A stretch of DNA of 64,000 nt. It comes from Kiritimatiellia bacterium (GTDB taxonomy: Bacteria; Verrucomicrobiota; Kiritimatiellia; CAIQIC01; JAGNIJ01). The notes beneath the pieces are model-generated. The model was not told where the DNA came from. It did no database searches and saw only the letters and a program-made list of their open reading frames with translations. A program made the translations under genes and the position numbers. The stretch covers positions 10,688 through 74,687 of the forward strand of contig JAGNIJ010000017.1 in NCBI GenBank assembly GCA_018001225.1, in the 5' to 3' direction. Of this stretch, positions 6,720-42,887 are shown piece after piece (within the stretch, counting starts at the first letter, position 1; every line of letters starts with the position of its first letter).

Positions 6720-8360
6720 GTGCCGGGATTGAACCAGTTGCACCGGTGGTCCATTCACCGGCTGCTCCGGTGGCTGCTGCCGCTGGTCATGATGATCGGC
6801 GTGCTGGCCGCGCTCCTCGCGGAGCGGCGGGCGGCGGGCGGCTCGGTCTTCGTGTCCGACCGCGCCTACGCCGACATGGCCGTCGCCCGCACGCTGGTGC
6901 TCGACGGCACCTACGGTCTGCAGCCGGGCGCGCCGTGCCCGGCGGTGCGCGACACGCTCTGGCGGCTGGCCCTCGCGGCCGCGGGCTGGCTCGTCGGCAG
7001 CGTCCGCGTCGCCGCCCTGCTGCTGGCCACGGTCTGCGCGATCGGGACCCTGCTGCTTATTCTCCGGCTGGCCCGGCTGCTGTTCCCGTTCCCGCCGTTC
7101 ATCCTCTATGCCGCCGTGCTGCTGATCGCGGCGCCCGGCCTCCTGACGAACGCGCTGTCCGGGACGTCGCTGCCCCTGGCCACGCTCCTGGCGACGGCGG
7201 CCTGCCTCCTGCACGTCGAGGGCCTGCGCGACCGGCGGCCCGTGCTGTCGTTCGGCTGCGCGCTCCTCGTCGGGTTGCTGGCGTGGATCCGGCTGGAATT
7301 CGTGCTGCTCTGGATCGTCTTCTGGGCGCAGGCGGCGCTGCGGATCACGCCGGACGGGCCCGGGAAGGGCCGGCGCGCCGCGGCGATGGTCAAGGGGCTC
7401 ACCGGGCTGCTGCTGCTGGCGGTGCTGCTGCTGCCGCTCTTTGCCTGGAACCTGCACTGGCTGGGCGTGGCGTGGCCGCAGGCGGCGGGCGCGCCCATGA
7501 CCCTGAACGCATGGGCGGACCGGCCGCTCGGCGAGGCGGCGGAGCGGCAGATCGTCTTTTCGCTCCGCACGCTGCCCGCGCTGTTCGGCTCCGCGTCGGG
7601 CGTTCCGCTGCTGCAGGGGTTCGCGGGTCGGCTGTTCGCCTGGTTCGGCGCGGGCCTGCTGGTCGTGCTGACCCTGCGGCGCGGGGAGGAATACCCGTTC
7701 CTGCTCGTGCCGTTGCTGCTGGTCCTGCTGCCGGCGGGCCTGGCGTTGCTCTATCCTTATATGGGCGCGGATTCGGCGCCCGTCGTCCTGGGCGCCATGG
7801 GGCCGCTGTTCCTGCTGGCCGCCGCGTTCGGAATATTCCGGCTGCCCTTCGCGGTGGAGAACCTCTACCGCAAGTGGAAGGCGGGACTGCCCGAGGCGAC
7901 GGGCTTCGACATATGGTGGACCGCCGTCGGCGGGCTGCTCCTGCTGTGGGCGCTCGTGGGCATGGGGCGGTTCGCGGCCCGGACCGCCGTGGAACGGGCG
8001 GACCGGGTCCAGGCCCGGCAGTTCATCTCCGACACGCTGGTCTCCGGCCGGGTGCGCGCCGGCCGGATTCTCACCGACGCGCCGGGCTGGCTGGCCTTCA
8101 CGCACGCCGTGCCCGTGGCCGATCTCGGCGGCGAGTTCACGCCGGCCCTCCTGCCCGCCCTGCGGCCCGACGGCCGCTGGCGGCGCGAGGGCCTGGCGGA
8201 ATACCTGCTGGAACAGCCGGCCGACCTGCTGATCCTCTGGCGCGGGGGGCAGGAGGAACTCACGGGGTGGTTGGGCGGCGCGGAGTTGAATCCGCCCCCG
8301 CTGCGCCGGCTCCCTCCGCCGGTGGTCCGGCAGCTCGGGCCGCTTCCCGGTGCTTCCTGA
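6720..8360 (+). CDS. Polytopic inner-membrane protein, GT-C-like (ArnT/PMT-type glycosyltransferase fold suspected)
   Basis: GTG start preceded by an AAGGAGA RBS. More than ten hydrophobic helices, then a roughly 150-aa C-terminal soluble domain. No catalytic motif could be verified by eye. Confidence 0.5.
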   Translation: MPGLNQLHRWSIHRLLRWLLPLVMMIGVLAALLAERRAAGGSVFVSDRAYADMAVARTLVLDGTYGLQPGAPCPAVRDTLWRLALAAAGWLVGSVRVAALLLATVCAIGTLLLILRLARLLFPFPPFILYAAVLLIAAPGLLTNALSGTSLPLATLLATAACLLHVEGLRDRRPVLSFGCALLVGLLAWIRLEFVLLWIVFWAQAALRITPDGPGKGRRAAAMVKGLTGLLLLAVLLLPLFAWNLHWLGVAWPQAAGAPMTLNAWADRPLGEAAERQIVFSLRTLPALFGSASGVPLLQGFAGRLFAWFGAGLLVVLTLRRGEEYPFLLVPLLLVLLPAGLALLYPYMGADSAPVVLGAMGPLFLLAAAFGIFRLPFAVENLYRKWKAGLPEATGFDIWWTAVGGLLLLWALVGMGRFAARTAVERADRVQARQFISDTLVSGRVRAGRILTDAPGWLAFTHAVPVADLGGEFTPALLPALRPDGRWRREGLAEYLLEQPADLLILWRGGQEELTGWLGGAELNPPPLRRLPPPVVRQLGPLPGAS

Positions 8361-8772
8361 AAAAATCCTGCAGCAGGGCGCGGCACTCCTCCTCGAGCAC
8401 CCCGCCTTCGTACTCCACGCGGTGATTCAGCCGGGGGTTCTGGAATATCTGGAAGAGCGAGACCGCGCCGCCCCGGGCGGGGTCGGCCACGCCCCACACG
8501 ACCCGCGGGATGCGCGCCAGGACGATCGCCCCCGCGCACATGGGGCAGGGCTCCTTGGTCACGTAGAGGACCGTGCCGGCGAGCCGCCAGTCCTGCAGCG
8601 CGGCGGCCGCCTGCGTGATCGCGAGGATCTCCGCGTGGGCGGTCGGATCCTTGAGCAACTCGACCTGGTTGTGCGCCTGGGCGATCAACTGCCCGTCGCG
8701 CGCGATCACGGCGCCCACGGGCACCTCCTCGAGGTCGGCGGCCCGGCGCGCCTGCCGAAGCGCCGCGCGCAT
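8260..8772 (-). CDS. tadA: tRNA-specific adenosine deaminase
   Basis: HAEILAI and PCPMCAGAI carry the CDA zinc-binding motifs (H-A-E and PC-x2-C). Start ATG at 8770-8772. A low-complexity C-terminal tail overlaps the 3' end of the convergent membrane-protein gene by about 100 nt. Confidence 0.85.
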   Translation of the reverse strand: MRAALRQARRAADLEEVPVGAVIARDGQLIAQAHNQVELLKDPTAHAEILAITQAAAALQDWRLAGTVLYVTKEPCPMCAGAIVLARIPRVVWGVADPARGGAVSLFQIFQNPRLNHRVEYEGGVLEEECRALLQDFFRKHREAARAAGPPAEGAGAAGADSTPRRPTTP

Positions 8773-8884: not shown

Positions 8885-10621
8885 ATGACGCCAGTCCCAA
8901 AGCGGCGCGGTCGGGCGGGGTGCCTTGCGGGGTGGTGTTTCCTGCTGGCCGCCGCGGCGCACGCGGACGATCTTGCGCTGCCGGTGGGGATGCCGATTCC
9001 TCCGCCGGGGCCCGGCGCGGGGCCGTACGCCGCGCCGCCGCTCGCCGAGTTCCAGGCGATGGAACAGGAGGTGCTGGCCGAGGGTCTGCAGGGCCCCGAC
9101 GGGCTGGCCGTGCACCCGTTGACCGGAGAGATTTTCTTTTCCGAGGAGGACGCGGCCCGCGTGCTCGTGCTGCGCGACGGGCAGCCGCTCCGCGTCGTGG
9201 ATCGGGACACGCCGCTCTACCGGCTCCGCGACGGGCGCCGCACGGCCGATCCGACGGAGCCGCTGCGCAACCCCGAGGGCATCGCCTTCTCGCCGTCCGG
9301 CGACCTGTACGTGGCGGAGGATATTTCCGGCGGGCGGCTGCTCCGCTTCCCGGGCCGTCCGGACGGCCGGTACCCGGAGGGCGAGGTGATCGAATTTCCG
9401 GGCGAGTGGCGCGCCTTCGCGTGGGAGGGCGTGGCCGTCGGCCCGCAGAACGACATCCTGCTGGCGGGCTCCGACGTCGAGTTCGCCATGGCCGGCAGCG
9501 GCGCCAAGCCGTTCATGGGCGCCATCCTCTACCGCGACAACGTCGGCCAATGGTGGGTGCCGTACCGCCGGCCGTTCGCGAGTTTCTCCTCCGTGCAGTT
9601 CACGCGGGGCGGGCGGCAGGCCGTCTACACGTGCGAAGTGTCGGGCGAGGTAGGCTGGCTGGACCTGCAGGGGCGCCGGCCCATCGGCGGCTGTAGTGCC
9701 ACGGCGGTCAAGGCCCCGGAAGGCATCGCCGTGCTGCCGGACGGCCGGCTGGCGGTGGCCTCGGAGGCGGGCGCCCTGCTGATCGTGGACCCCGCGGTGG
9801 ACCGCCACACGGTGGCGGCGGAGGGGTTCGGGTCGCTCGAATCGGCGCAGTGGGATCCGCTCGCGGAGCGCCTGCTGCTCACGGAGCAATCGAAGGGCCG
9901 CGTGCTGTCGCTCAAGGCCCGGCCCGACTTCCCGGCGGAGGTGAACCGCATGGACATGGCGGTCTACCATCCGCTGTTCAACCCGCGCCATGTCCCCGAG
10001 TACTGCCCCCCGTACCTGGCCCGCATCCTGGCCCTGGGCGGGCTCGACTACGGCCGGCCGGGCCTGCCGCCGATCTCCTTCCGCGAGTTCACCGAGCGCG
10101 TGCCGCTGATCGCGGCGGACGCGCGCGCGGTGCCCGCGGAAGACCAGGAACCGGTCGAGGATCCGTTGGAGCGCGTGCAGTTCGTCGTCTTCAAGCCGAA
10201 CCAGATGGTCATGGGCGAGACCGGCCCGCAGACGGCGCTGGCGCTGTTCGCCAGCCGTTCGAAATCGGGACGCGTGACGGCCACGAGCGTCCTGCGGGCG
10301 GAGACGATGGGGATCAGCCTGGACCGGCCGAAGACCGAGCGGATCGGCACGGCGGCCCTGGCCGTGCCGATGCCCGGGGGGGTCGGGGTGTCCTCGCTGG
10401 GCATCGCCAACATCAACTTCATGGGGCTGGGCCGGACGCCGGACTACTCGGTGGTGCTCAACCCGGGGCAGCCGTTCGACAGCTATCTCGTCGTATACGA
10501 AACCGGCGGAAGGCGTGTACATTATAGGTTGGAGTTCTCGGAGGAAGGGTCGGGGCTGGATTCGTGGGTCGTGGCGTTCACCGCCTCGCGGCCTGACGAA
10601 TGGCTGTTCCTCGGCCGATAA
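8885..10621 (+). CDS. Secreted beta-propeller (NHL/SMP-30/gluconolactonase-like repeats) protein, paralog 1 of 3
   Basis: Signal peptide MTPVPKRRGRAGCLAGWCFLLAAAAHADD. Repeated GPDGLAVHP...IFFSEE / NPEGIAFSPSGDLYVAE blade motifs. The C-terminal domain shares the motifs RVQFVVFKPNQMVMGETGPQ, FASRSKSGRV and NFMGLGRTPDY with the ORFs at 10622 and 16937. Confidence 0.7.
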   Translation: MTPVPKRRGRAGCLAGWCFLLAAAAHADDLALPVGMPIPPPGPGAGPYAAPPLAEFQAMEQEVLAEGLQGPDGLAVHPLTGEIFFSEEDAARVLVLRDGQPLRVVDRDTPLYRLRDGRRTADPTEPLRNPEGIAFSPSGDLYVAEDISGGRLLRFPGRPDGRYPEGEVIEFPGEWRAFAWEGVAVGPQNDILLAGSDVEFAMAGSGAKPFMGAILYRDNVGQWWVPYRRPFASFSSVQFTRGGRQAVYTCEVSGEVGWLDLQGRRPIGGCSATAVKAPEGIAVLPDGRLAVASEAGALLIVDPAVDRHTVAAEGFGSLESAQWDPLAERLLLTEQSKGRVLSLKARPDFPAEVNRMDMAVYHPLFNPRHVPEYCPPYLARILALGGLDYGRPGLPPISFREFTERVPLIAADARAVPAEDQEPVEDPLERVQFVVFKPNQMVMGETGPQTALALFASRSKSGRVTATSVLRAETMGISLDRPKTERIGTAALAVPMPGGVGVSSLGIANINFMGLGRTPDYSVVLNPGQPFDSYLVVYETGGRRVHYRLEFSEEGSGLDSWVVAFTASRPDEWLFLGR

Positions 10622-12568
10622 ATGACCATGCATGAGCCGAGTCCAAGTCGGAAGGCAGCCCGGCGCCGGTGGGGCGTGGGCCTGCTCTGGGCCGCGGCCG
10701 GGCTGGCGCTGCCGCCGGGACCCGCGCCCGCGCTGCGCCTGGAGACGTCCCGCGAGCTGCTCGCGGTCGAGGTCGTCGCCGGCGGGTTGAAGGAACCCGG
10801 CGGCATGGCGACGGATCCCCGGCACGGCGAAGTCTACGTGGCCGAGCGGGGCGCCCACCGCGTATCCCTGATCCGCGACAAGCAGGTCCTCCCCGTGCTG
10901 GAGGGGGCGTTCGCCCTCGCCGAGAAAAAGCGCGGCCCGCGAAAAGCCTCCACGCTGGACGCCCCGTCCGCCATCGCCTTCGACGCCGACGGCCGCCTGT
11001 ACGTGGTCGAAAGCCACGGCCCGGCGCGGCTGCTGAAGTTCGAGCCGCTCTACGAAGGCTTGCGCCTGGCCTCGGTGATCGAGACCCCGTGGGTGGAAAC
11101 GCCGCAGGTCTGCACGGGCGTCGCCGCGGACCGCCGCGGCCGGCTGTTCGTCACCACGCAGAACCGCGAGCGCCGCGTGGTCACGGTCTTCGGCGCCGTG
11201 CTGATGCGGGAGGCGGACGGCAACTGGAAGCTGGTGGACCACGGCCCGTTCTCGGATTTCTCCAACGCCGCGGTGGACCCGGAGGGGCGCACCCTGGTCG
11301 TGGGCGAGCGCCGGGGCGCGGACTTGAGCTGGTACGACGCGCGCCGCCAGGTCGAGATCCGCAGCCTGGAGAAAATGGAAGGGCTGCGCCACCTGGCCCT
11401 GCTGCCGGACGGCACCACGGTCGCCAGCCTGAACCGCGCCGACGGCACCTGGAGCCTGGCGGAGGTGGACGGCCTCTCGGGCATCGTCTGGGAGTGGGTC
11501 GGCGGACTCGGGGAGATCGGCGGCTTGTGCGCCCACCCGGACACCGGGGATCTCTACGTCACGCTGGCGGGCGAGGGCAAGGTCATGCGGGTGCACCGGC
11601 TGGAGCCGCGGAAGGAGACGCCGGCGCCGCAGAGCCGGATCGGCCGCATGATGCGGGTGTTCGAGCTGGAAAACGCGATCCCGCCGCCCGAGTGGCCGGA
11701 GTTCTTCCGCACGTTCATCGAACAGTTGGGGCTGGTCCGGCCCGTCAACGAGCACACGGCGCGCCGGCCCGGCGAGCCCCGGCCGGAGGGCATCCCGCTG
11801 ACGATCGCGGAGTTCGCCTCCAGCGTGCCCGTGGTCGCCGCCAAGGTCCGGGCGCGCCTCGTCGGCCCGGAGGATCAGGAGGCGGACCCCGTCGAGGAGT
11901 TGAGCTTCCTCCTGTTCCATCCCAACCGGAGCATGCTGACGCGGCAGACCATGGCGCCCAGCTTGAGCCTGTTCTGGGCGCGGCACCGGAGCGGCCGGGT
12001 CGTCCGCAGCCAGTTCATGCCGAACCGGGCGGGCCGCCCGTTGAGCGAAGACATCCCGTGGGACGAGATGCCCGAAATGCTGGTCGCGTTCCCCGCCGGC
12101 TTCTACGCGCCCGAGACCGGCGTGTCCGAGAACAGCCTGCTGCGCGTCTACTTCCTGGGCATGGGCATGGGGCCGGACTACTGGATCGACCTCGACCGCG
12201 AGGACATGGGCCGGAGCCGCATGGTGGTCGAGAAGCAGGGCGGCCGGCGCGTGGACTATATCCTCGAGCCCTACCTCGAGACGCCCTCCGCCGGCGGGCA
12301 GACCGTCCTCGTCGCCGGCCTCAAGGAAGTGGAGATGGGCTGGCACGACCTGGGCCAGGACCCGATCCCGTGGAAGATTGTTCCCCCGGACGCGCGCCCC
12401 GTCCAGACCCGGCACCTGATGAACCTGGACCAGGTCCGCGCCCGGCCGATGCCCCGGGAACCCGCCGTGGCGGACGTGTACCTGCCCCAGCCGACCTTGC
12501 AGGGTACGGACCTCTCCCGGCGCATCGTCCTGCGCGCCGCCTCCCGCTGGGCCACGAACCCGTTTTAA
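10622..12568 (+). CDS. Secreted beta-propeller protein, paralog 2 of 3
   Basis: Its ATG is immediately after the TAA of paralog 1. Signal peptide GVGLLWAAAGLALPP. Blade motifs LKEPGGMATDPRHGEVYVAERGAHRVSLI. C-terminal motifs LSFLLFHPNRSMLTRQTMAPSLSLFWARHRSGRV and YFLGMGMGPDYW. Confidence 0.7.
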   Translation: MTMHEPSPSRKAARRRWGVGLLWAAAGLALPPGPAPALRLETSRELLAVEVVAGGLKEPGGMATDPRHGEVYVAERGAHRVSLIRDKQVLPVLEGAFALAEKKRGPRKASTLDAPSAIAFDADGRLYVVESHGPARLLKFEPLYEGLRLASVIETPWVETPQVCTGVAADRRGRLFVTTQNRERRVVTVFGAVLMREADGNWKLVDHGPFSDFSNAAVDPEGRTLVVGERRGADLSWYDARRQVEIRSLEKMEGLRHLALLPDGTTVASLNRADGTWSLAEVDGLSGIVWEWVGGLGEIGGLCAHPDTGDLYVTLAGEGKVMRVHRLEPRKETPAPQSRIGRMMRVFELENAIPPPEWPEFFRTFIEQLGLVRPVNEHTARRPGEPRPEGIPLTIAEFASSVPVVAAKVRARLVGPEDQEADPVEELSFLLFHPNRSMLTRQTMAPSLSLFWARHRSGRVVRSQFMPNRAGRPLSEDIPWDEMPEMLVAFPAGFYAPETGVSENSLLRVYFLGMGMGPDYWIDLDREDMGRSRMVVEKQGGRRVDYILEPYLETPSAGGQTVLVAGLKEVEMGWHDLGQDPIPWKIVPPDARPVQTRHLMNLDQVRARPMPREPAVADVYLPQPTLQGTDLSRRIVLRAASRWATNPF

Positions 12569-12698
12569 TTCCGGCGGACCCCGGCGGGCTTAGCCGGCAG
12601 GGGGCGATCTCCCTCTTTGGACCCCGGCGGGCTTGTCCCGCCGGTGAACGAGGTCAGGGAGCCCGCGCCGCGCGCGGTGTTCTCCGCCTTCCCTGCGC

Positions 12699-12741
12699 CG
12701 GAAAAACAAAAACGCCGGGATCCGCGTGAGCGAATCCCGGC
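12699..12741 (-). terminator. Rho-independent terminator for the PPIase gene
   Basis: On the minus strand: hairpin GCCGGGAT...ATCCCGGC (8-bp stem) followed by GUUUUUGUUUUUCC, 17 nt after the stop at 12758. Confidence 0.5.
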
Positions 12742-12757
12742 GCCGTATGCAAACCGT

Positions 12758-13984
12758 CTACTCTTCAGCCGGGGCCGCCGGCGCTTCCTCGGGGGCCGGC
12801 TCGGCCGCCGCCTCGGGTTCCGCCGGAGCGGTCTCGGGCTCGGCCGTCTCTTCCACCGGGGGACGCATCATCGGCATCGACATCGGCGGCGGCATGCTCG
12901 CCGCGCCGAGGAACTGGATGTCGGCCTTGGCCTTGATCCCGTCGATGTACTCGCGGACGGCCAGCTGGCGCTTCTGCGCCTTCATGCCGCGGACCAGGTC
13001 GGGACGCACCTCGTCCAGTGTCATCGCGTGGGCCTCGTCGTGCTTGGTGACCTTGATGACGTGGTAGCCGAACCGGGTTTCCACCACCGGCCCGATCTCG
13101 TCCACCTTCTGGGCGAACGCCGCATCCTCGAAGGGCTTGACCATGTCGCCCCGGCGGAAGGGCGGCAGCTCGCCGCCGCGCGCCTTGCTGGGGCAATCGG
13201 AGTGCTCGGTCGCCAGCGCCGCGAAGTCGGCGCCTTCGATCAGCTTCGCGCGGAGTTCCTCCGCCTTGGCCTGCGCCGCCTTCTTCTGCTCCTCCGTCGC
13301 GTCCGGCTCCACGGCGATCAGGATATGGCTCGCGGCCACGGTCTCCGGCATGTCCATGCGGTCCTTGTGGTCCTCATAGAACTTGGCGACTTCCTCATCG
13401 GTCGGCTCGGCGATCTGCTTTTCGACCTCGGACTCCACGAGCTTGTTGATCCGCAGCTCCGTGGCGAATTCCTTGTCGAACTCCGCCTTGGAAATGCCCT
13501 GCTTGTCCAGGGCGTCTTCCAGCGTCATGCCGGGCGGGAAGCGGCCCGTGAACTCGGCGCGCGCCTTGTCGATCTCCTCGGGCGTGAGTTCCACCTTCTG
13601 CCGGTCCGCCTCGCGGAGCAGCAGGCGCTTGACGATCAGCGCCTCGGCGGCCTGCCGGGTGATCTGGCCCCGCATTTGGGCCAGTTGCTCCGGCGGGACC
13701 TGGCGCTGCGCGGCGATCTTCATGGCGCGGTCCACCTCGGCGCGGACTTCGCCCCAGGTGAGCTGGTCGCCGTCGATCGAGGCGATCGCCTCGTCGTCCG
13801 CGGGTTCCGGGGCCGCGCTGCGTACGGGCTGGGAAAACAGGTCGCCCGGCTGCGACAGATCCACTTCGGCGTCGGCCGCCGGCTCTTCCTTCTGCCCGCA
13901 GCCCGTGAGCGGGAAGGCGACGAGGACCGCCGCCGTCAGTATCCACCGGGCCGTTCTCCACGCCGTGTCGCTATGCTTCTTCAT
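12758..13984 (-). CDS. Peptidyl-prolyl cis-trans isomerase, SurA/PrsA-like parvulin lipoprotein
   Basis: Lipobox AFPLTGCGQ. A SurA-N-like chaperone region is followed by a PpiC domain (SHILIAVEPDAT...GGELPPFRRGDMVKPFEDAAF...GYHVIKV). An acidic Pro/Glu/Ala C-terminal tail follows. Confidence 0.8.
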   Translation of the reverse strand: MKKHSDTAWRTARWILTAAVLVAFPLTGCGQKEEPAADAEVDLSQPGDLFSQPVRSAAPEPADDEAIASIDGDQLTWGEVRAEVDRAMKIAAQRQVPPEQLAQMRGQITRQAAEALIVKRLLLREADRQKVELTPEEIDKARAEFTGRFPPGMTLEDALDKQGISKAEFDKEFATELRINKLVESEVEKQIAEPTDEEVAKFYEDHKDRMDMPETVAASHILIAVEPDATEEQKKAAQAKAEELRAKLIEGADFAALATEHSDCPSKARGGELPPFRRGDMVKPFEDAAFAQKVDEIGPVVETRFGYHVIKVTKHDEAHAMTLDEVRPDLVRGMKAQKRQLAVREYIDGIKAKADIQFLGAASMPPPMSMPMMRPPVEETAEPETAPAEPEAAAEPAPEEAPAAPAEE

Positions 13985-14152
13985 CCGCGTGCCATCCTTT
14001 CCTTGGTGTCCTTCCGACAGTTCGAGACGGAATTCGTTCAAAACGCGGCATACTCTGGACTCCCGGTCTCCCGGTGTCAAACACACATTAGAGCACTTGA
14101 ACCTTGGGATTTTTTTTGGATTTCGATATTCGAAAATCGAGTTTGGACTCCT

Positions 14153-15136
14153 TTATGGCACGGGCCAGCGGAACGCGCCGGTGCGCAGGAAGCGCGCGAC
14201 CTCGGCGGCCGCCTGTTCGGCCTTGCGCCGGACGGCCTCCGCGGTGTTGAAGGCGTTGTGCGGGGTGAGCAGGACGTTCGGCCGGCGGGCCAGCCGGCGC
14301 AGGGCCCGGGCGGCGCGGCCGGCGCGGCCGGTCCGGAACGCGACGGCCACCTCGCTTTCGTCCTCGAACACGTCCAGGCCCGCCCCGGCGAGCCGGCCGG
14401 TGTCCAGCGCCCAGGCGAGGTCCGCCGTGGGGGCCAGTTCGCCGCGCGCGATGTTCACGAAGAGGGCCCCGGGCCGGACTCGCCGCCAGGCGGCGCGGTT
14501 GAAGTAGCCCGCGTTCCGTGCCGTCAGGTTCATCGCGCAGACGATCACGTCCGCCTCCGCGAGCCCGCGGGCGGGCGGGACGTAGTCGATCTCCGGATGG
14601 CGCCGCGCGAGGTCCACGCCCCGCACGCGCAGGCCGAGGCCGCGCCCGACCCGCGCGATCTCGCGGCCGATGTTCCCGACGCCCACGACGGTCAGCGTCC
14701 GGCCGAGGCATTCGCCGCCGGTCAGCCCGTCGCGGTCGAAGGCGGCGAACTGCCGGAGCTGGAGGGGGAGGCGGCGGAGGAGCGCCAGCCAGAGCATCGC
14801 CGCGTGTTCCGCGACGGCGCGGGCGCAGTAGCGGGGGAGGTAGCCGCAGGGCAGGGGCCGGCCCGCCCGTTCGCGGTAGCGCCGGAGATGGTCGTAGCCG
14901 GTGCTGCGCGTGAGCACGCCGGAGAGCCGGGGCGCCCAGGCCGGCGGGAGGATCGACTGGGTGCGGATGCTGACCAGGGCGGCGGGGGGCTCCGCGTCGC
15001 CGCGCTCCTGGATCGTGCGGCCGGTCAGCACGGCCCGCACCCCCCGGGGCAGGAGCGCCCGCAGCGCGGCCGCCTCCTCCGCAAAGGCCTCGTAGAACAC
15101 CACGTCGGCCGGCCGCTGCCGCGCTTTTTTCATCAC
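14153..15136 (-). CDS. D-isomer-specific 2-hydroxyacid dehydrogenase (NAD-binding)
   Basis: Rossmann motif TLTVVGVGNIGREIARVG. The catalytic region ARGELAPTADL...LDVFEDE...LLTPHNAFNT is typical of D-2-HDH (LdhA/GyaR family). Confidence 0.85.
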   Translation of the reverse strand: MMKKARQRPADVVFYEAFAEEAAALRALLPRGVRAVLTGRTIQERGDAEPPAALVSIRTQSILPPAWAPRLSGVLTRSTGYDHLRRYRERAGRPLPCGYLPRYCARAVAEHAAMLWLALLRRLPLQLRQFAAFDRDGLTGGECLGRTLTVVGVGNIGREIARVGRGLGLRVRGVDLARRHPEIDYVPPARGLAEADVIVCAMNLTARNAGYFNRAAWRRVRPGALFVNIARGELAPTADLAWALDTGRLAGAGLDVFEDESEVAVAFRTGRAGRAARALRRLARRPNVLLTPHNAFNTAEAVRRKAEQAAAEVARFLRTGAFRWPVP

Positions 15137-15194
15137 CGTTTTTTTCGTCCTGCATCTTTAGCGCGCGTGACTTTCCTGTACGATCCGGTGAAAT

Positions 15195-15241
15195 GTGACA
15201 CGGGCGTCTCGCCCGTGCTTTTCACGGCCGGGACGGCCGTG
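15195..15241 (+). repeat. GC-rich dyad element, family copy A: GTGA-CACGGGCG-TCTC-GCCCGTG-CTTTT-CACGGCCG-GGAC-GGCCGTG
   Basis: Two 8-bp-stem perfect inverted repeats separated by CTTTT. Same core and orientation as 5569-5615. It lies about 180 nt upstream of the motA/exbB-like gene. Confidence 0.4.
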
Positions 15242-15304
15242 CCACACTCCAGATCCAATCCTTCGCTAAAGATACAGTTTTCCGCCCCCGGGCCATTTCG
15301 CCCA

Positions 15305-15340
15305 TTGACTTGAATAGCCGCTTGGAGGATGATAGACAAT
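15305..15340 (+). promoter_or_regulatory. Weak candidate promoter upstream of the stator-like operon
   Basis: TTGACT at 15305-15310 with a poor -10 (GATGAT) after a 17-nt spacer. It is included only because it is the single -35-like hexamer in the 280-nt divergent intergenic region. Confidence 0.2.
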
Positions 15341-15417
15341 CTAATTAGTCGGGTTCCGCGTGGACGCGCGGAGCCCCCGAAAAGAGCCGAGAAACTTCTC
15401 TCCAGTCGAGGTGCGCA

Positions 15418-16926
15418 ATGGCGGAAGAAACGGAAGTCGGCGTAACCGAGTTGACCGAGCCCGAACTCCAGGTGGCCAAGGGCGGGCGCCCCGGAACCGA
15501 CGCCAACGTGGTGATCCAGGTGCTGGTGGGGCTCATCGGCACCGTCGCGGTGGCGTTTGCCGTGTTCCCCCTGAAGGGCCGGAGCGCGGCGCTGGATTAC
15601 ATCTACCAGCTCATCAACCAGCGCGGCCCCATTCAGTACATCGAGCTGTTCATGGGCTTCATGGTGGCGGCCCAGATCTTCCTGAAGTCGCGCATCCTGA
15701 AAAAGCAGACGCGCACCTTCATTGAAAGCCCCGTGGACTCCAGCATCGACCTCAACGACGACGTGCACGTGCAGGAGCTCCGCAAGCGCATCGTCGCCAA
15801 CCCGCTCTTCACCGAGAGCATCGCGTTGAGCCGCATGGACCGCATCCTGGCCCTGTGGCTGGCGACCAAGGACGTTGGCCGTATCTCCGGCTGGGCGGCC
15901 TCGGAGTCCGACCGCGACACGTCGTCCTCCGACTCCTCCTACGCCCTCTCGCGCGTGCTGATCTGGGCCATTCCCATCCTGGGGTTCATCGGGACGGTGC
16001 AGGGCCTCGGGTCCGCCGTGTCCGGGTTCGCGGACTTTCTGAAGAGCAGCGCCGAATTGAGCGCCATCAAGGGCGCCATCGCGAACGTGACCATCGGCCT
16101 CGGCGTCGCCTTCGACACCACCTTCCTCGCCCTGATCCTGGTGACCCTGCTGATGTTCCCGCTCTCCTCGCTGCAGCGCCGCGAGGAAAACCTCTTCGTC
16201 GAAATCGACATCTACCTGGACGAGGTGCTCATCTCGCGCCTGCCCTCGCCCGAGAGCAAGCCGATCGTGATCGAGAACCTCGAGGACTCCATCGAGGCCG
16301 CCTTCCGCCGGTACATCCCCGACCCGGACCGCTACGACGAGGTGTTCACCCGGTCCATCGAGAAGGCCGCCGCCAGCGTGGAGCAGAAGTTCGACGGCTT
16401 GAGCCAGAACTACGTCTCCACGCTGCGGGGCTTGAGCGAGCACTTGTCCAGCAGCTTCGGCACCGTGGGCGACGCGATGGAGACCGCCCTGCGCAAGGTC
16501 ACCGCGGACCTGCGCGCCCAGGAGGACGCCGTCCTCGAAAGCCGCCGGAAGCTGGCGGAGGAGGAGGCGGGCCGGATGAAGGGCGTGTTCGCCGGCGTCA
16601 ACGACGCCGTGGTCAAGGCGGCGGGCGAGTACACGCGCAGCGCGGACGCGCTCACGAGCGCCACGCGCGAGAGCTCCGAGCAATCCGTCCAGGCCGCGCG
16701 GGAGCTGGTCACGCGCATGAGCGAGGTCCGGCAGCTGGCCTCGGGCATCCAGGACCTTTTCAAGATCCAGCAGGCCATGGAGAAGAGCCTCGCGGGGATC
16801 GCCGCCTCGGCGGAGTTCCGCACGGCGCTCGAGGATCTGCGCAAGCACCTGACCACGACCGACGCGCTGGTCAGCCGCTTGAGCCGTCCGCGCGTGATCA
16901 CGCTGCGCGAGGAGACCGGCGCGTGA
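15418..16926 (+). CDS. MotA/TolQ/ExbB-family proton-channel (stator) protein with a roughly 260-aa C-terminal coiled-coil extension
   Basis: GAGGTG RBS 6 nt upstream. TM1 VVIQVLVGLIGTVAVAFAVF, a large cytoplasmic loop, then the family signature PILGFIGTVQGLGSAVSGF and IANVTIGLGVAFDTTFLALILVTLLMFPL. Residues about 245-502 are predicted helical and Glu/Ala/Arg-rich with no TM. Confidence 0.75.
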   Translation: MAEETEVGVTELTEPELQVAKGGRPGTDANVVIQVLVGLIGTVAVAFAVFPLKGRSAALDYIYQLINQRGPIQYIELFMGFMVAAQIFLKSRILKKQTRTFIESPVDSSIDLNDDVHVQELRKRIVANPLFTESIALSRMDRILALWLATKDVGRISGWAASESDRDTSSSDSSYALSRVLIWAIPILGFIGTVQGLGSAVSGFADFLKSSAELSAIKGAIANVTIGLGVAFDTTFLALILVTLLMFPLSSLQRREENLFVEIDIYLDEVLISRLPSPESKPIVIENLEDSIEAAFRRYIPDPDRYDEVFTRSIEKAAASVEQKFDGLSQNYVSTLRGLSEHLSSSFGTVGDAMETALRKVTADLRAQEDAVLESRRKLAEEEAGRMKGVFAGVNDAVVKAAGEYTRSADALTSATRESSEQSVQAARELVTRMSEVRQLASGIQDLFKIQQAMEKSLAGIAASAEFRTALEDLRKHLTTTDALVSRLSRPRVITLREETGA

Positions 16927-16936
16927 GGCCGCGGCG

Positions 16937-18964
16937 ATGTCGCTAGGCCTTACAGCGCGCGGGCGGCGGATCGCGGCGGCCCTGGCTGCGGCGGGCTGCC
17001 TCTGGCCGCGGGTCGGCGAAGCGCAGGTGGTGGACACCGCCAAGAGCGACTTCAACATGCAGGTCAGGGCCCGCGGCCTCAAGAACCCGGAGGGCGTGGC
17101 CCTGCATCCCTCGAGCCGCGACATCTACGTGGCCGAGCGGGGCGCCAACCGCGTCGTCGTCCTGCGCAACAACACCCCGGCCCCGGCCATCGAGTCCGGC
17201 TGGACGGTGGAGACCAATTATCCCAAGTGGGTCATCAGCAAGAACCGCCCGCGGGAGGCGGTCGAGCGGGGGCAGTTGCAAAGCCCCGGGGCCCTCTCGT
17301 TTTCCACCAACGGCCACCTGTTCGTGGTCGAACAGGTGCCGTGGGGCCGGGTCCTCGAGTTCATTCCCGACGACGCGGGCCAATACAAGAAGGCCCAGGT
17401 CGTCGGCGTGCCGTGGCTGGAGAAGCCGTACGTGTGGGAGGATCTCAAGGCCGCGGACGACGGGCGCCTGTTCGTGGCGGGAAACGACAGCGCGGCGCGC
17501 GGCGGGCTGACCTTCGGCGTGGTGCTGGTCCGGGATCTCGAGGGCGACTGGTGGGTGGTGGATTACGGGCCGTTCATGAATTTCAGCGGCGTGAGCCTCT
17601 CCCGGAAGCAGGACGTGGTCGTCATCGGCGAGCGGCCCGAGGGCGGCATCGTGTGGTGGGACGCCGTCCGGCACCTGCCCATCGGCACCGCGGGCAACCT
17701 GACCCCGCAGTCCGAGATCGAGGCCGTGGGACTGCTCGGCAACGGGGCCATCGTGCTCGCGCAGCGCGCCAGCACGAAGGGCAAGGACGCCCGGCTGCTC
17801 TCCCTCGACCCGACCAGCGGCGCCCTGAAGCAGCTGGTCGAAGGGCTCGATTCCCTCGGCGCGATCTGCCTCGTGCCGGAGACCGGGAACCTGCTCGTGA
17901 CCGATCCCCAGGCCGGCCTCCTGGCCGAGTGCTCGCCTAAGACGCCCCTCCCGCCGGGCGAGTACCTGATCCAGCGCAGCCTCGAGGGCTACGAAATGGC
18001 GACGGGCTTCACGCCCCGGTCGTCGCCGCAGTTCCTCCGCAGCTTCTTCAGCCAGGCCGGCGTCGGCCTGGACCAGCAGACCACCAAGGGTTCGGCCGGC
18101 GGGGAGGACGAGGGCGAGGCCGGCGGCGGCATGGCCGTCTCGGTGTCCCTGCGCGACTTCGCGAGCAAGCTCCCGCTGGTCGCCGGCAAGGTGAAGGTGA
18201 TGCAGGCCGAGAACCTGGAGGGCGAGGACAAGGACCCGGTCACGGAGGTCAACTTCGTGCTGCTCTTCCCCGGCCGCATGGTGCTCGGCGGGGAATACGC
18301 GACGCCCAGCATGAGCTACTTCGCCGCCACGCGCAAGAGCGGCAAGGTCGAGCAGACCCGCGAACTGCTCTCGGGCATGGCGATGGACCAGCGGGTGCAG
18401 GGCGAGGGCTGGACGCGCCTCGGGAAGGGCGGGGCCATCAGCGTGCCGCTGGTCACGTGCAGCATGCAGAAGCGCGACGACGGCATGGAACTGAACCTCG
18501 TGTTCCTCGGCATGGGCCTCTACGACGATTACTACCTTTCGATGATGAGCGGCGTGGACGAGGAGGTCGGCACCCTGGTGGTGAACGGGATCAAGGGCGA
18601 CCGGCGGGTCTACAAGACCTCCTTCCGCGAGGTCGTCAACGACGGGTCGGAGGTCAAGAACCTGGTTGTCGCGGGGTTCGATCCGAAGGAGAAGATCGGC
18701 GTGGGGTGGCTGAACATCGGCCGGTGGCCGGTGGGGTCCTATGTCGGCCTGGGCGAGATGCAGTCCGGGGCGTTCCAGGGGGTCAGCGAGGACTTGGCGC
18801 GGCTGATAGAGCGCAAGCAGATGGAGTGGCGCGCGACGGAAGTCGGCGCCGCGACGGAAGGCGGCGAGGTTCCGGCCGGCGAACCCGGGGCGGAGCCGGT
18901 CCCCGCGCCGGTCGGGGGCGGGGAAGCCGGTGCGCCGGTCCCGGCGCCCGCGGCGACGCCGTGA
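16937..18964 (+). CDS. Secreted beta-propeller protein, paralog 3 of 3, embedded in the stator operon
   Basis: Starts 10 nt after the stator gene stop. Signal peptide RRIAAALAAAGCLWP. Blade motifs LKNPEGVALHPSSRDIYVAERGANRVVVL. C-terminal motifs EVNFVLLFPGRMVLGGEYATPSMSYFAATRKSGKV and VFLGMGLYDDYY match paralogs 1 and 2. Confidence 0.7.
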   Translation: MSLGLTARGRRIAAALAAAGCLWPRVGEAQVVDTAKSDFNMQVRARGLKNPEGVALHPSSRDIYVAERGANRVVVLRNNTPAPAIESGWTVETNYPKWVISKNRPREAVERGQLQSPGALSFSTNGHLFVVEQVPWGRVLEFIPDDAGQYKKAQVVGVPWLEKPYVWEDLKAADDGRLFVAGNDSAARGGLTFGVVLVRDLEGDWWVVDYGPFMNFSGVSLSRKQDVVVIGERPEGGIVWWDAVRHLPIGTAGNLTPQSEIEAVGLLGNGAIVLAQRASTKGKDARLLSLDPTSGALKQLVEGLDSLGAICLVPETGNLLVTDPQAGLLAECSPKTPLPPGEYLIQRSLEGYEMATGFTPRSSPQFLRSFFSQAGVGLDQQTTKGSAGGEDEGEAGGGMAVSVSLRDFASKLPLVAGKVKVMQAENLEGEDKDPVTEVNFVLLFPGRMVLGGEYATPSMSYFAATRKSGKVEQTRELLSGMAMDQRVQGEGWTRLGKGGAISVPLVTCSMQKRDDGMELNLVFLGMGLYDDYYLSMMSGVDEEVGTLVVNGIKGDRRVYKTSFREVVNDGSEVKNLVVAGFDPKEKIGVGWLNIGRWPVGSYVGLGEMQSGAFQGVSEDLARLIERKQMEWRATEVGAATEGGEVPAGEPGAEPVPAPVGGGEAGAPVPAPAATP

Positions 18965-18994: not shown

Positions 18995-19681
18995 ATGGGT
19001 AGGAGATCCAGAGGCGCGGCCATGGACTTCTCGTCGTTCATGTGCGTGATTCTCATGCTCATCGGCGTGCTCATGATCCTGCTCATCAGCAACGTGCTCA
19101 CGATCATCAGCAACCCCGAAAACGTGCAGATCAGCGCCGTGATCAAGGGCGCGCTCTACGCCGAGAAAACCGAGGCGGATGAGGACCAGGGCCTGATGCT
19201 GGTGCCGAAGTTCGGCAACAAGTTCAAGGACCCCGTGTACGTGGACGTCTACGGCGACCAGATCGTCATCTATCCCGAGGGGAAGATCGTCCCGGTCGTC
19301 GACCTGGAGCGCTCCGGGAACGCCTTCGAACGCATGCTGAACACCGTGGCCGCGAAAAAGGACGAGCGCTACATCGTGCTGCTCGCCCGGCCCCGTTCGG
19401 CGCGCGTCCTGCGCCGGCTGCGCACCGCCATCCACGACCGCGAGGTCGACCTGGGATTCGAGCTGTACGAGGAGGGCCGCACCGTCGAGGTGGCGGCCGG
19501 CCAGGCGGCGTCGGGCGAGGCGGAAGGGGAAACCCCGCCGGAAGGCGAACCGGGCGGGGAACCCGTCGCACCCTCCGCGGAAGGCGCGGAACCGGGCGCG
19601 GCGCCGGAGGAGGGCGGAACGCCGCCGGCCGAACCGCCGGCCGAACCGGCGGCCGCCGCGCCCGTGGCACCCCAGGAGTAA
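18995..19681 (+). CDS. ExbD/TolR-family protein with a Pro/Glu/Ala-rich C-terminal extension
   Basis: AGGGAG RBS at 18981-18986. N-terminal TM FMCVILMLIGVLMILLI. The ExbD-like periplasmic fold pattern is DPVYVDVYGDQIVIYPEGKIVPVVDLE...YIVLLARPRSARVLRRL...DREVDLGFELYEE. A 55-aa tail ETPPEGEPGGEPVAPSAEGAEPGAAPEEGGTPPAEPPAEPAAAAPVAP follows. Confidence 0.65.
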   Translation: MGRRSRGAAMDFSSFMCVILMLIGVLMILLISNVLTIISNPENVQISAVIKGALYAEKTEADEDQGLMLVPKFGNKFKDPVYVDVYGDQIVIYPEGKIVPVVDLERSGNAFERMLNTVAAKKDERYIVLLARPRSARVLRRLRTAIHDREVDLGFELYEEGRTVEVAAGQAASGEAEGETPPEGEPGGEPVAPSAEGAEPGAAPEEGGTPPAEPPAEPAAAAPVAPQE

Positions 19682-20333: not shown

Positions 20334-20645
20334 ATGTCAGACCAGGGTTGGAATGAACTGGTGAGCCGGATCGTGGGAGCGGTACACCCCTTGCAGATCA
20401 TTCTTTTCGGATCCTCCGCTCGGGAAGGCGGGGGCGTCAGGGGCGACGTGGATGTACTCGTGGTCATGCCCGATGGTACGCCACGGCGCGCGACAGCGCA
20501 GAAACTCCACCTGGAAATGTTCGGACTGCCCTTCGCCGTGGATATCCTCGTCGCGACACCGTCCGATCTGCAGAGGCATCGTACGAATATCGGGTTGATC
20601 TACAAAACCATCCTGGAAGAGGGGAAACAACTCTATGCCGCCTGA
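20334..20645 (+). CDS. Minimal nucleotidyltransferase (MNT/MntA-type antitoxin)
   Basis: The GSSAREGGGVRGDVDVLVV motif (G-S-x9-13-D-x-D) of the Pol-beta superfamily. 103 aa. Its stop overlaps the downstream HEPN start. Confidence 0.75.
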   Translation: MSDQGWNELVSRIVGAVHPLQIILFGSSAREGGGVRGDVDVLVVMPDGTPRRATAQKLHLEMFGLPFAVDILVATPSDLQRHRTNIGLIYKTILEEGKQLYAA

Positions 20646-20820
20646 TGTCCCCGTTCCGGGTTCCGCGGCAGACTGGCTTCGGCATGCGAAAGCGGACCTG
20701 GCCTTGGCCCGCGTTCCGCTTCCGGAGGAAGGGCTGTATCTTTCCCTGTGTTTTCATGCTCATCAAGCGGCTAAAAAGGCGATCAAGGCCGTACTGAATT
20801 TCTTCCCGAACACTGCCTGA
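20635..20820 (+). pseudogene. HEPN-domain toxin gene (COG2250-type), 3'-truncated
   Basis: Its ATG overlaps the MNT stop by 11 nt. The N-terminal helix-1/2 pattern is AADWLRHAKADLALARV...LSLCFHAHQAAKKAIKAVL. The ORF stops after 61 aa and the downstream R-x4-6-H catalytic motif is absent. A palindromic element begins about 38 nt later. Confidence 0.55.
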
Positions 20821-20857
20821 AACTTCAATGCCGGCTTGGTGATTATGAGGGGTGAGT

Positions 20858-20930
20858 GTCATCCCGAACGAAGTGAGGGATCTCCGACTTGTTGGGCAGC
20901 GCAGAGATCCCTCGCTGCGCTCGGGATGAC
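20858..20930. repeat. Imperfect palindromic MITE/REP-like element
   Basis: GTCATCCCGAACGAAGTGAGGGATCTC, 19 nt, GAGATCCCTCGCTGCGCTCGGGATGAC: 27-nt inverted arms at about 85% identity. Both-strand translations give the CHPERSEGS-type peptides that often appear as spurious hypothetical ORFs. Confidence 0.5.
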
Positions 20931-21071
20931 ATGCTCCACTTTCTATGTCCGGCAAGCACCGCACGGGCCTTGCGCAGTCATCAAAGTTTCATCCGTGAGC
21001 GTTCCGGCCGCCGCCGGAGGCTTTGCTGATCTGAGACACCATCCGTGAAAAGTGCGTGTCACATATTTGTT

Positions 21072-21247: not shown

Positions 21248-21582
21248 ACCCCCAATCCTTCTCCTGCCTCCACTGCGGCGCCTGTTGCCGCTGGCCGGGG
21301 CACGTGCTGCTGACGGACGCGGATGTGGCGCAACTGGCGTCCCATCTGGGCATTCCCGAGCGGGATTTCATCGACCGGCACACCGTGCTGGCCTCCAACC
21401 GGGGCCAGTTGAGCCTGGCCGAGACGCCGGAGGGCGCCTGCGTGTTCCTGGAAAACGACGCCTGCCGGGTGTACGTTTCCCGCCCGGCGCAGTGCCGGGA
21501 ATTCCCGGCCGGCTGGTCCGTTCCGGGGTGCCCGGCGGTCGGGGGCCGGGCCGCCGGAGCCCTGGCGCGGCGCCCGGTGTAA
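21232..21582 (+). pseudogene. YkgJ-family (CxxCxxCC zinc/iron-chelating domain) gene lacking an in-frame canonical start in its present repeat configuration
   Basis: The in-frame peptide TLNTEHPQSFSCLHCGACCRWPGHVLLTDADVAQLASHLGIPERDF...CREF carries the CxxCxxCC hallmark upstream of the first possible start (GTG 21304). The frame opens immediately after a TGA inside the heptamer tract. Confidence 0.45.
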
Positions 21583-41934: not shown

Positions 41935-42887
41935 ACCTCAAGAAGAACATGACGTTGATCGTGGGCGGCGCGATCGCCGGGGTGCTGCTCGTCATCCTGC
42001 TGGTCCTCCTGTTTAGGTTCAACTCTTCCTACCAGAAGGTGAACCGGGAACTGCAGTCGGCCCAGCAGCGCCTGACCATCCTGAACGGCCGCGACCCGTT
42101 CCCCTCCGAGGAGAACGTGGCCGTGGTCCGGACCAACCTGGCGGTGCTCCAGGATTTCTTCGGCACGCTGATGAAATCCCTGCAGGAGGGCCAACCCGAG
42201 ATCGCGGAGATGGAGCCGGCCGAGTTCAACCTGCTGTTAGACCAGACGCGCCGGCGCCTGTTCGGCGCGGCGGCCAAGGTGAAGGTGGCGCTGCCCCCGG
42301 GGTTTTCCTTCGGGTTCGACCGCTACGCGGCCGGCACGCTGCCCGATGCGGTGGACGTGCCGAGGCTGGTGGCCCAGATGAAGGAAGTCGAGTTCCTGTG
42401 CGGCCTGCTCTACGCCTCGAAGATCGGCGAGATCTCGTCCATCGAGCGGGCGGTGTTTGAAGCCTCGGCCCGCCCGACGGTCGCGACGGAGACCTTCGTG
42501 GATCCGCGCATGGCGCGGTACGGCGGCGGGGCGCCGGCGGCGACGGCGGCCGCGACGGCGGATACCTACAAGGACGCCTCGGGCCTCTTCAGCCGGCAGC
42601 GGTACACGGTAACCTTCCGCGGCCGCGATGCCGCCGTGGAGGATTTCCTCAACCGGGTCGCTTCCAGCAAGCGGTTCCTCGTGGTGACCCGGCTGCAGTT
42701 GGAGAACGAAACGGGCGTGCCGAAAGTGACGGCCCCGCTTCCGGCCACGGCCGCGCCGGGAACGGCGCCCGCCGCGCCGCTGGCGCGGGAGAAACGCGTC
42801 TCGGCCGGCCGGGAGCCCGTCAAGGTGATCGTCGAGGTGGAGGTGTACCGCTTCCATTCGCCGCAGGACGGGGAGGCTTCATCGTGA
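41931..42887 (+). CDS. pilO: PilO-like type IV pilus assembly protein
   Basis: Start overlaps the pilMN stop. N-terminal TM LIVGGAIAGVLLVILLVLLF and coiled-coil QKVNRELQSAQQRLTIL, then a periplasmic domain. The call rests on position between PilN and PilQ. Confidence 0.6.
   Translation: MNLKKNMTLIVGGAIAGVLLVILLVLLFRFNSSYQKVNRELQSAQQRLTILNGRDPFPSEENVAVVRTNLAVLQDFFGTLMKSLQEGQPEIAEMEPAEFNLLLDQTRRRLFGAAAKVKVALPPGFSFGFDRYAAGTLPDAVDVPRLVAQMKEVEFLCGLLYASKIGEISSIERAVFEASARPTVATETFVDPRMARYGGGAPAATAAATADTYKDASGLFSRQRYTVTFRGRDAAVEDFLNRVASSKRFLVVTRLQLENETGVPKVTAPLPATAAPGTAPAAPLAREKRVSAGREPVKVIVEVEVYRFHSPQDGEASS

Follow-up and report, generated by a model that had tools for sequence, protein, structure and literature searches.

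Three propeller proteins with an unassigned C-terminal domain in a Kiritimatiellia genome, and the possible coupling of one of them to a MotA/ExbD-type motor

Three genes, par1, par2 and par3, in a 64,000-nucleotide (nt) stretch of DNA from a Kiritimatiellia bacterium (contig JAGNIJ010000017.1, positions 10,688 to 74,687; hereafter the window, with a G+C content of about 70%) encode members of a previously undescribed family of secreted proteins that falls into four clades. The family plan is a signal peptide, a six-bladed propeller of the NHL class, a helical linker and an all-beta C-terminal domain of about 190 amino acids (aa). par3 is embedded in an operon for a putative motor of the MotA/ExbB/TolQ-ExbD/TolR type, and this placement recurs in other genomes. 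From the sequences and their gene order, it is our moderately held view that the par3-type proteins are functionally coupled to the motor as an accessory periplasmic partner. What may well be new here is a propeller protein that partners a Tol/Exb-type motor in the periplasm, along with a domain of no assigned family and a stator of unusual make-up.

par3 and the stator operon

The stator operon is compact, with par3 starting 10 nt past the stop of the channel gene MotA-long (16926) and ending 30 nt before ExbDa (18995), so that the gaps along MotA-long, par3, ExbDa and ExbDb are 10, 30 and 6 nt. A first-pass annotation of the window, made from the sequence alone, had described the third paralog as embedded in a stator operon, and both the gaps and the recurrence of the linkage in other genomes corroborate this. 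The features of the operon are as follows.

15305-15333, plus strand: sigma-70-like promoter match 5' of the stator operon, a weak consensus match
15418-16926, plus strand: MotA-long, long-tailed channel subunit of the MotA/ExbB/TolQ type, 502 aa
16937-18964, plus strand: par3, 675 aa, par3-type clade, flanked by the channel gene on one side and the ExbD-like genes on the other
17051-17938, plus strand: par3 six-bladed beta-propeller, residues 39-334, from AlphaFold2 (AF2), Foldseek and profile matches
17966-18058, plus strand: par3 conserved helical linker, residues 344-374
18143-18721, plus strand: par3 unassigned all-beta C-terminal domain, residues 403-595
18788-18961, plus strand: par3 C-terminal helix (residues 618-641), then a disordered Pro/Ala/Glu-rich tail
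18995-19681, plus strand: ExbDa, ExbD/TolR-like subunit a, 228 aa
19688-20320, plus strand: ExbDb, ExbD/TolR-like subunit b, 210 aa

The promoter match agrees with the consensus at 9 of 12 positions, a fit that chance alone would be expected to produce about once in the region.

Searching 185,579 species genomes for par3-type motifs gave 11 loci, all in metagenome-assembled genomes (MAGs) of Verrucomicrobiota/Kiritimatiellia. Among the loci recovered by means of the family protein, 11 have a par3-type ortholog (39-83% identical), and in every one of these 11 the gene adjoins MotA-long and both ExbD-like genes; in locus L001 the order is rearranged to exbDa-exbDb-motA-par3. An independent scan was seeded with MotA-long and covered 80 metagenome loci. 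At a MotA-long identity of at least 40%, the family gene was directly downstream in 34 loci, absent from 16 and not determinable in 11, so that 34 of the 50 determinable Kiritimatiellia-type stator loci have a family gene immediately 3' of MotA-long. In a distant group with 27-32% identity, it was downstream in none, absent from 18 and not determinable in one. The first-pass annotation had suggested profiling the family against long-tailed ExbB homologs, and had held that a common known C-terminal domain with no ExbB/ExbD linkage elsewhere would speak against its proposal. The linkage does recur elsewhere, and the expectation is upheld for the par3 clade and for about two-thirds of the close stator loci, but it fails for the other clades of the family, for the remaining close loci and for the whole distant group, and the gene is not obligatory for the stator.

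In a tree of MotA-long, the deepest branches of the Kiritimatiellia type are among those with par3: one large clade is wholly par3-positive, the deep L001 branch is positive as well, and a third clade has par3-positive and par3-less loci interleaved. This pattern fits a par3 gene that was ancestral in the Kiritimatiellia-type stator and then underwent several losses or relocations. The distant stators (27-32% identical, from soil and peat metagenomes) have the same three-gene core. Genes for a SurA-like peptidyl-prolyl isomerase (PPIase) and a 2-hydroxyacid dehydrogenase (12758-15136, minus strand) are transcribed divergently from the stator operon and keep their place in nearly all stator loci examined (L001, L002, L005-L010, L019-L022 and many from metagenomes), which makes them part of one conserved neighbourhood with the stator.

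MotA-long matches the Pfam family MotA_ExbB (PF01618) at an E-value of 2e-3, below the cut-off, and PADLOC ZorA3 at 2e-8 to 4e-5, with weak matches to the NCBIfam ZorA tail models. Its homologs form at least 616 clusters at 90% identity, many of which have PF01618 and are named MotA, TolQ or ExbB at their source. The motifs GFIGTV.G and AFDTT are invariant in the last two transmembrane helices of the orthologs, with conservation of the Thr motif of the third transmembrane helix and the TT motif of the fourth. The last transmembrane helix is followed by a helical tail of about 250 aa, with an invariant FRRYIPDPDRYDEVF, a variable length and an invariant C-terminal PRVIT..EE end; the ortholog in L002 has a 51-aa deletion in this tail. 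The tail would be cytoplasmic, since we assume the standard ExbB/MotA topology.

The two ExbD-like subunits differ at the residue that would carry the proton. In ExbDb, the transmembrane Asp (D17) is invariant, NCBIfam ExbD matches at an E-value of 8e-4, and weak Pfam ExbD matches are present in seven of nine orthologs. ExbDa has a transmembrane helix and a periplasmic domain, and the window copy bears a Pro/Ala/Glu-rich tail; at the canonical position of the transmembrane Asp it has a Cys (Ala or Ser in orthologs), and an invariant Asp is found six residues earlier. The subunits are paralogous to each other (hhalign probability 95%, E-value 3e-8). As ExbDa lacks the canonical Asp, a dimeric axle would be asymmetric, a heterodimer with one protonatable Asp between its two subunits, and an axle with apparently one such residue bears on the alternating-protonation models of 5:2 motors. 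When profiles of the stator proteins were searched against the Protein Data Bank (PDB), the tail matched only coiled-coil noise and the one ExbD match was marginal (E-value 0.2). The Pfam and PADLOC matches and the names given at source support the MotA/ExbB assignment, and the genes next to par3 are likely to encode a motor of the MotA/ExbB/TolQ-ExbD/TolR type, for which we propose the 5:2 type.

The propeller family

The first-pass annotation had listed three paralogs of roughly 580-680 aa, and their open reading frames (ORFs) are found exactly where it had put them. In pairwise BLASTP comparisons, the proteins are 28-30% identical over about 520-590 residues at E-values of 1e-41 to 1e-64, a likeness that, at the level of sequence, is far beyond chance. 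The three-way alignment (28-32% identity) is collinear from the propeller through the end of the C-terminal domain, and the C-terminal blocks that had been quoted as shared are indeed equivalent in position: RVQFVVFKPN...SGRV, ELSFLLFHPN...SGRV and EVNFVLLFPG...SGKV fall in the same columns, as do FMGLG..PDYS, FLGMG..PDYW and FLGMG..DDYY. Residues F523, G525, D531, S468 and G469 of par3 are invariant or nearly so among 86 family members. The idea of a lineage-specific triplication did not survive, as the three genes fall in three of four deep clades that extend across Kiritimatiellia. Because the window holds one member each of the par1-, par2- and par3-type clades, the sequences indicate an ancient paralogy and not a recent triplication. 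It is plausible that the clades have different substrates or partners, as the annotation had supposed, because they differ in their C-terminal extensions and in their genomic contexts.

An exhaustive hidden Markov model (HMM) search with a profile of the C-terminal domain found 111 clusters (50% identity) among 1.84 billion representatives. Nearly all of them are 560-780 aa long with the domain at about residues 330-640, and because lengths and domain positions are this uniform, we regard the architecture as fixed, with the domain seen only in fusion with the propeller. The family appears to be confined to MAGs of Kiritimatiellia/Verrucomicrobiota. A neighbour-joining distance tree of 86 members has four deep clades with clade-specific C-termini. 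Members of the par1-type clade end right after the domain, and par1 itself stops there without a C-terminal extension. The par2-type clade ends in ...RR.VLRAASRW....F, the par3-type clade in a helix and a Pro/Ala/Glu tail, and a fourth, standalone clade of 700-780 aa in WTN.ILSRA...W....F. An amphipathic C-terminal helix that always ends in Phe-COOH is found in the par2-type and standalone clades and in neither par1 nor par3; its carriers include family members P0016-18, P0033, P0049 and P0053. In the literature we found no paper describing the family or the gene cluster in Kiritimatiellae, and the NCBI entry that is 100% identical to par3 (Kiritimatiellae bacterium) is labelled "hypothetical protein". 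The C-terminal domain deserves a family entry of its own.

The NHL repeat (PF01436) is the sole Pfam family above threshold in each of the three proteins: its cut-off is 20 bits, and it scores 29.7 in par1, 35.5 in par2 and 27.1 in par3. In the AF2 model, the par3 propeller (residues 39-334) has 24 strands in six four-stranded blades with a predicted local distance difference test score (pLDDT) of 94-98, and its blade motif is NPEG.A..P...(L/I)YV.E. The nearest structures by Foldseek are lactonases (8djf, 3dr2), SMP30, DFPase and NHL domains, with E-values of 1e-11 to 1e-8. The solved lactonases 8djf, 3dr2, 3e5z, 4gn7 and 3g4e match at 1e-11 to 6e-9 with target-normalised template-modelling (TM) scores of 0.69-0.73, and NHL domains and Pizza6 have TM scores of 0.63-0.78. 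The family sequence profile best matches NHL repeats of the PknD type, with PknD and Pizza repeats reaching E-values down to 9e-30. As a fold class, the earlier designation of an NHL/SMP-30-like propeller is therefore right (Foldseek TM score of about 0.7, Pfam NHL above cut-off). Membership in the SGL enzyme family (PF08450) is not established, since par2 scores 20.3 bits against an SGL cut-off of 26.3 and par1 and par3 have no SGL match; the precomputed SGL matches in a few homologs are faint. Weak matches to the Phytase-like, Strictosidine-synthase-like and ScyD/ScyE families were also found. The family thus shares its fold, at target-normalised TM scores of about 0.65-0.78, and its blade motif with the known NHL/SGL propellers (the PknD sensor, TRIM-NHL, SMP30/gluconolactonase and DFPase), but its identity to them is just 11-17%, it falls below the SGL threshold and shows, by eye, no identifiable catalytic metal ligands, and its propeller is always fused to a family-specific linker and C-terminal domain.

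The full-length AF2 model of par3 has a pLDDT of 85.4 and a predicted TM score of 0.81 (86-sequence alignment). In it, the C-terminal domain (residues 403-595) consists of about 13 antiparallel strands with a pLDDT of about 90-95 and contains the motifs DP....F..F.P, PS.S.F.A...SG and FLG.G...DY. The first-pass annotation had been unable to assign this domain, and our comparisons led to the same result. Searches of Pfam with the full proteins and with 17 isolated domains at E-values up to 10 gave nothing consistent, there was no match in NCBIfam or PADLOC, and profiles of 17 and of 86 sequences had no match among PDB sequences. A model of the domain alone, which was of medium confidence (pLDDT 64.5), had no significant match in a Foldseek search of the PDB, the best and non-significant ones being to fatty-acid-binding proteins (FABPs), lipocalins and a YmcC-like exported protein (E-values of 0.09-0.6, probability at most 0.54). 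The domain is consequently assigned to no family of Pfam, NCBIfam or the PDB; we do not claim a new fold, as the structure comparison was with the PDB alone. An internal duplication of the domain was considered and rejected, as hhalign of the two halves gave a probability of 0.6%.

By eye, each of the three N-termini shows a basic n-region, then 12-14 hydrophobic residues and an end resembling A-x-A, a Sec-type layout in agreement with the signal peptides noted earlier, and residues 6-21 of par3 form a lone helix in the AF2 model. We infer a periplasmic location for the family proteins. Lipoprotein anchoring of par3 through "AAAGC" was rejected, the Cys not being kept in orthologs. The par3 linker (residues 344-374) is made up of two conserved helices with the motifs EYL.QRS and P.FL..FF and is followed by a disordered Gly/Glu-rich segment (residues 384-400). 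The protein ends in a long helix (618-641) and the disordered Pro/Ala/Glu tail, an ending that is typical of the par3-type clade.

Candidate roles of the par3-type proteins

We favour par3 as a partner of the motor because its intra-operon placement lasts across deep divergence and rearrangement, a classical signature of joint function. The motor would be built from the long-tailed MotA/ExbB/TolQ homolog and the ExbD/TolR-like heterodimer, with one subunit of the latter carrying the proton on its Asp. On the periplasmic side, the domains of the ExbD pair would let this inner-membrane motor engage the soluble propeller protein, whose propeller face and C-terminal domain would bind an envelope target. 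Motor activity would then be linked to a process in the outer envelope, much as TolQR-TolA acts on the propeller protein TolB. Such a scheme implies a physical interaction of par3 with the stator, and we are less confident of this specific TolB-like mechanism, which is drawn by analogy, than of functional coupling as such.

Partnership between par3 and the motor is made plausible by the report of both missing TolA/TonB and unconventional partners in the Planctomycetes-Verrucomicrobia-Chlamydiae (PVC) group (PMC12204202): Tichowtungia, a representative of Kiritimatiellota, is reported to have no recognisable TolA or TonB, and in PVC bacteria tolQ-like genes are reported to be used together with heterologous pairs of tolR and with periplasmic partners outside the canonical set. 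The same report raises, for Kiritimatiellota and the PVC group, the open question of how inner-membrane energy is conveyed to the outer envelope in diderms without canonical TolA/TonB, and the conserved four-gene module of MotA-long, the propeller-beta protein and two different ExbD-like subunits is a candidate answer.

TolB is, like par3, a soluble periplasmic two-domain protein with a six-bladed propeller, and its gene too shares an operon with those for a MotA/ExbB/TolQ-type channel and for ExbD/TolR-type subunits, a feature that within the present family holds for the par3 clade only. The proposed logic, an inner-membrane motor driven by the proton motive force (PMF) and acting on a periplasmic propeller adaptor, would be common to both. 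However, the TolB propeller is C-terminal and PD40/WD40-like (PF07676), whereas that of the family is N-terminal and of the NHL/SGL class, and in place of the N-terminal alpha/beta TolA-binding domain of TolB (PF04052) the family has the unassigned all-beta C-terminal domain. The par3 cluster also differs from Tol-Pal in having no TolA-like or Pal-like gene, a long cytoplasmic channel tail by the assumed topology, and a heterologous TolR-like pair.

Force transducers of the TonB and TolA type have an N-terminal transmembrane anchor with an SHLS/His motor-binding motif and a Pro-rich or helical spacer that leads to a C-terminal globular domain, whereas the N-termini of the family look cleavable and have no conserved His or SHLS, and the Pro/Ala/Glu-rich segment of par3 forms the very end of the protein, where no domain follows. 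The PVC clusters of tolQ-like genes, tolR pairs and von Willebrand factor A (vWA) "force transducers" come from the same superphylum and from organisms reported without recognisable TolA/TonB (PMC12204202). Their vWA partner is anchored by a transmembrane segment with an SHLS/His helix, whereas par3 is a soluble propeller and beta-domain protein with a cleavable-looking signal peptide; the channel tail of about 250 helical residues is found here, and the par3 operon has no tetratricopeptide repeat (TPR) gene.

Several points weigh against coupling of par3 to the motor. Gene order is the sole link between the two. Neither the N-terminus nor the ortholog alignment of par3 contains a membrane anchor or a TonB/TolA-like motor-binding helix, its domain order is reversed relative to TolB, and it matches none of the TolB domains of Pfam. 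A stator link is lacking in three of the four family clades, and no stator gene lies within 8-10 kb of the standalone-clade genes in L003/L004, L013 and L014. The family gene is missing from 16 of the 50 close and all 18 of the distant stator loci, which indicates that par3 is dispensable in cis. All four look-ups of large contigs gave motA-exbDa-exbDb without a propeller gene, usually followed by fabZ-lpxA-gspDEF, although these four are unrepresentative, since 34 of 50 determinable loci in the larger scan carry the gene. Because the MotA-long tail is cytoplasmic by topology, the main output of the motor could be intracellular and unrelated to par3, and because the structures closest to the propeller are those of enzymes (lactonases), a catalytic role is possible. 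It is the repeated gene loss, the three unlinked clades and the enzyme-like neighbours of the propeller that keep our confidence moderate.

The catalytic alternative holds that the three proteins are periplasmic enzymes of the lactonase, lyase or esterase type, that the C-terminal domain binds a substrate or carbohydrate and that par3 is merely co-regulated with the stator. We consider this rather doubtful, although it is the alternative that survives best. It has in its favour the best structural matches, which are the lactonases RPA3624 and XC5397, SMP30 and DFPase (E-values of 1e-11 to 1e-8, TM score of about 0.7), the weak SGL, Phytase-like, Strictosidine-synthase-like and ScyD/ScyE matches, and the facts that most family clades lack a stator link and many stator operons lack the gene. 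However, SGL is below cut-off in par2 and absent in par1 and par3, so only the generic NHL repeat passes, and the profile best fits non-enzymatic NHL scaffolds such as the PknD sensor domain, teneurin and LRP. The conserved residues E67, E132, R138, W205 and D242 are mostly positions of the repeat motif (YVAE) and do not, by eye rather than by structure, make up an identifiable metal set; in the SGL enzymes the divalent-metal ligands are Glu, Asn, Asn and Asp, in the middle of the propeller's top face. Co-regulation also explains poorly that the intra-operon position is held down to about 35% identity and after the rearrangement in L001. If the proteins are only periplasmic enzymes, the finding shrinks to a new NHL-propeller subfamily of modest interest.

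A motor partnership of par3 could also be part of something larger, and we offer this extension as unlikely but worth stating. The family would be the periplasmic output module of a previously unrecognised envelope-spanning PMF machine that replaces Tol-Pal-like functions in outer-membrane maintenance. A pentamer of the long-tailed MotA/ExbB protein and the asymmetric ExbD heterodimer with its single proton-carrying Asp, in bacteria reported without recognisable TolA/TonB, would act mechanically on soluble propeller adaptors through the C-terminal beta-domain, which would be a new fold, with par3 as the adaptor encoded in cis and the standalone and par1/par2 types as adaptors encoded in trans.

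It is improbable that the C-terminal domain binds lipids or lipoproteins as a beta-clam like those of FABPs, lipocalins or LolA, in which case the family would traffic or sense lipids or lipoproteins of the outer membrane and par3 would couple this to the motor. Small meander barrels are the only Foldseek matches of the domain, about 13 antiparallel meander strands form it as one unit without an internal repeat, and the stator cluster is commonly near fabZ-lpxA and a SurA-like chaperone gene. However, none of these matches is significant and no TM score exceeds 0.35, the model of the domain alone is of medium quality, and the proximity to fabZ-lpxA is loose and absent from the window.

Least credible is a Zorya-like anti-phage system in which a ZorA-like channel senses envelope damage and the propeller protein is the periplasmic sensor or effector: MotA-long shares with ZorA of the ZorA/ZorB 5:2 motor a long helical tail after the last transmembrane helix and weak but significant profile matches (PADLOC ZorA3 and, weakly, the NCBIfam tail models), but there is no match to ZorB, ZorC, ZorD or ZorE, PADLOC is silent on five other proteins of the cluster, the ExbD-like partners have no match to an OmpA or peptidoglycan-binding domain of the ZorB kind, no nuclease or helicase effector gene is nearby, and Zorya has no periplasmic propeller partner. 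The MotA-long tail is also shorter, and the setting is not a defence island but a syntenic core locus with housekeeping flanks (2-hydroxyacid dehydrogenase, SurA-like PPIase, fabZ-lpxA and type II secretion system [T2SS] genes) and with MotA-long 40-65% identical across genomes. With ZorA-only matches, no ZorB or effectors and a conserved housekeeping context, we rejected a Zorya defence system.

The par1-par2 tandem and the rest of the window

Besides the stator operon, the window contains the following features around the family genes.

about 8260-8750, minus strand: TadA-like deaminase
8885-10621, plus strand: par1, ATG at 8885, 578 aa, par1-type clade
8885-8965, plus strand: par1 signal-peptide-like residues 1-27
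9923-10618, plus strand: par1 linker and C-terminal domain, residues 347-578
10622-12568, plus strand: par2, 648 aa, par2-type clade
11612-12481, plus strand: par2 linker and C-terminal domain, residues 331-620
12512-12565, plus strand: par2 C-terminal amphipathic motif LSRRIVLRAASRWATNPF-COOH
12711-12744, minus strand: strong hairpin terminator, 15-bp stem then T-run, between the convergent par2 and SurA-like genes
12758-14086, minus strand: SurA-like PPIase
14153-15136, minus strand: 2-hydroxyacid dehydrogenase
22552-34308, plus strand: giant subtilisin/thrombospondin-type-3 (TSP3)/Kelch protein, 3918 aa, after a short low-GC stretch

The stop codon of par1 and the start codon of par2 abut at 10619-10624 (cga TAA ATG acc), as had been noted from the sequence in the first pass. 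The hairpin at 12711-12744 is the end of the par1-par2 unit and probably a bidirectional terminator. The tandem recurs in the close relatives L005 and L007 and in the distant loci L016, L017 and L018. Orthologs of par1 are 79-84% identical in L005 and L007, 45% in L016 and 41% in L017/L018, and the tandem is kept at 33-45% identity in L016 and L017/L018, with the stop and start overlapping in L016. A TadA gene is found upstream of the pair in L016 as well, and a distant par1-type gene is present alone, without the tandem, in L023. par1 and par2 are thus a conserved tandem pair and not mere neighbours. They would form a separate module, probably co-translated, whose products act together and possibly as a heteromer. 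Since par1 has no C-terminal extension and par2 ends in a Phe-ended amphipathic helix, different docking partners are implied for the two.

The 3918-aa secreted protein encoded 3' of the stator cluster (22552-34308) combines a subtilisin S8 domain with thrombospondin-type-3-like Asp-rich repeats and Kelch-like repeats. It is kept at the same position in L001 (from 15347 onward, 53% identity) and L007 (from 12645 onward, 79%), and in other genomes fabZ-lpxA-gspD-gspE-gspF is found in place of its gene. In the stretches 20334-20645 and 20464-21048, a small MNT-type nucleotidyltransferase ORF (Pfam NTP_transf_2) begins near the end of exbDb within a local dip in G+C to 0.62 and is followed by an inverted pair of short repeats whose translations contain "CHPERSEGS". 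None of the related loci examined contains this arrangement, which may have arisen as a small insertion. A small CxxCxxCC/YkgJ-like ORF (21304-21582) also lies 3' of the stator cluster, and it is present in the par3-less locus L022 (9818-10057).

For PVC bacteria, it was recently proposed that proteins with a vWA domain transduce force from motors to which they are coupled (PMC12204202), and the window encodes one of 588 aa (52371-54137), which has no motor genes adjacent to it. A PilM-like gene, two unassigned ORFs and a gene for a 1124-aa secretin with TPR and STN regions (40234-47261) make up a type IV pilus or T2SS-like assembly cluster.

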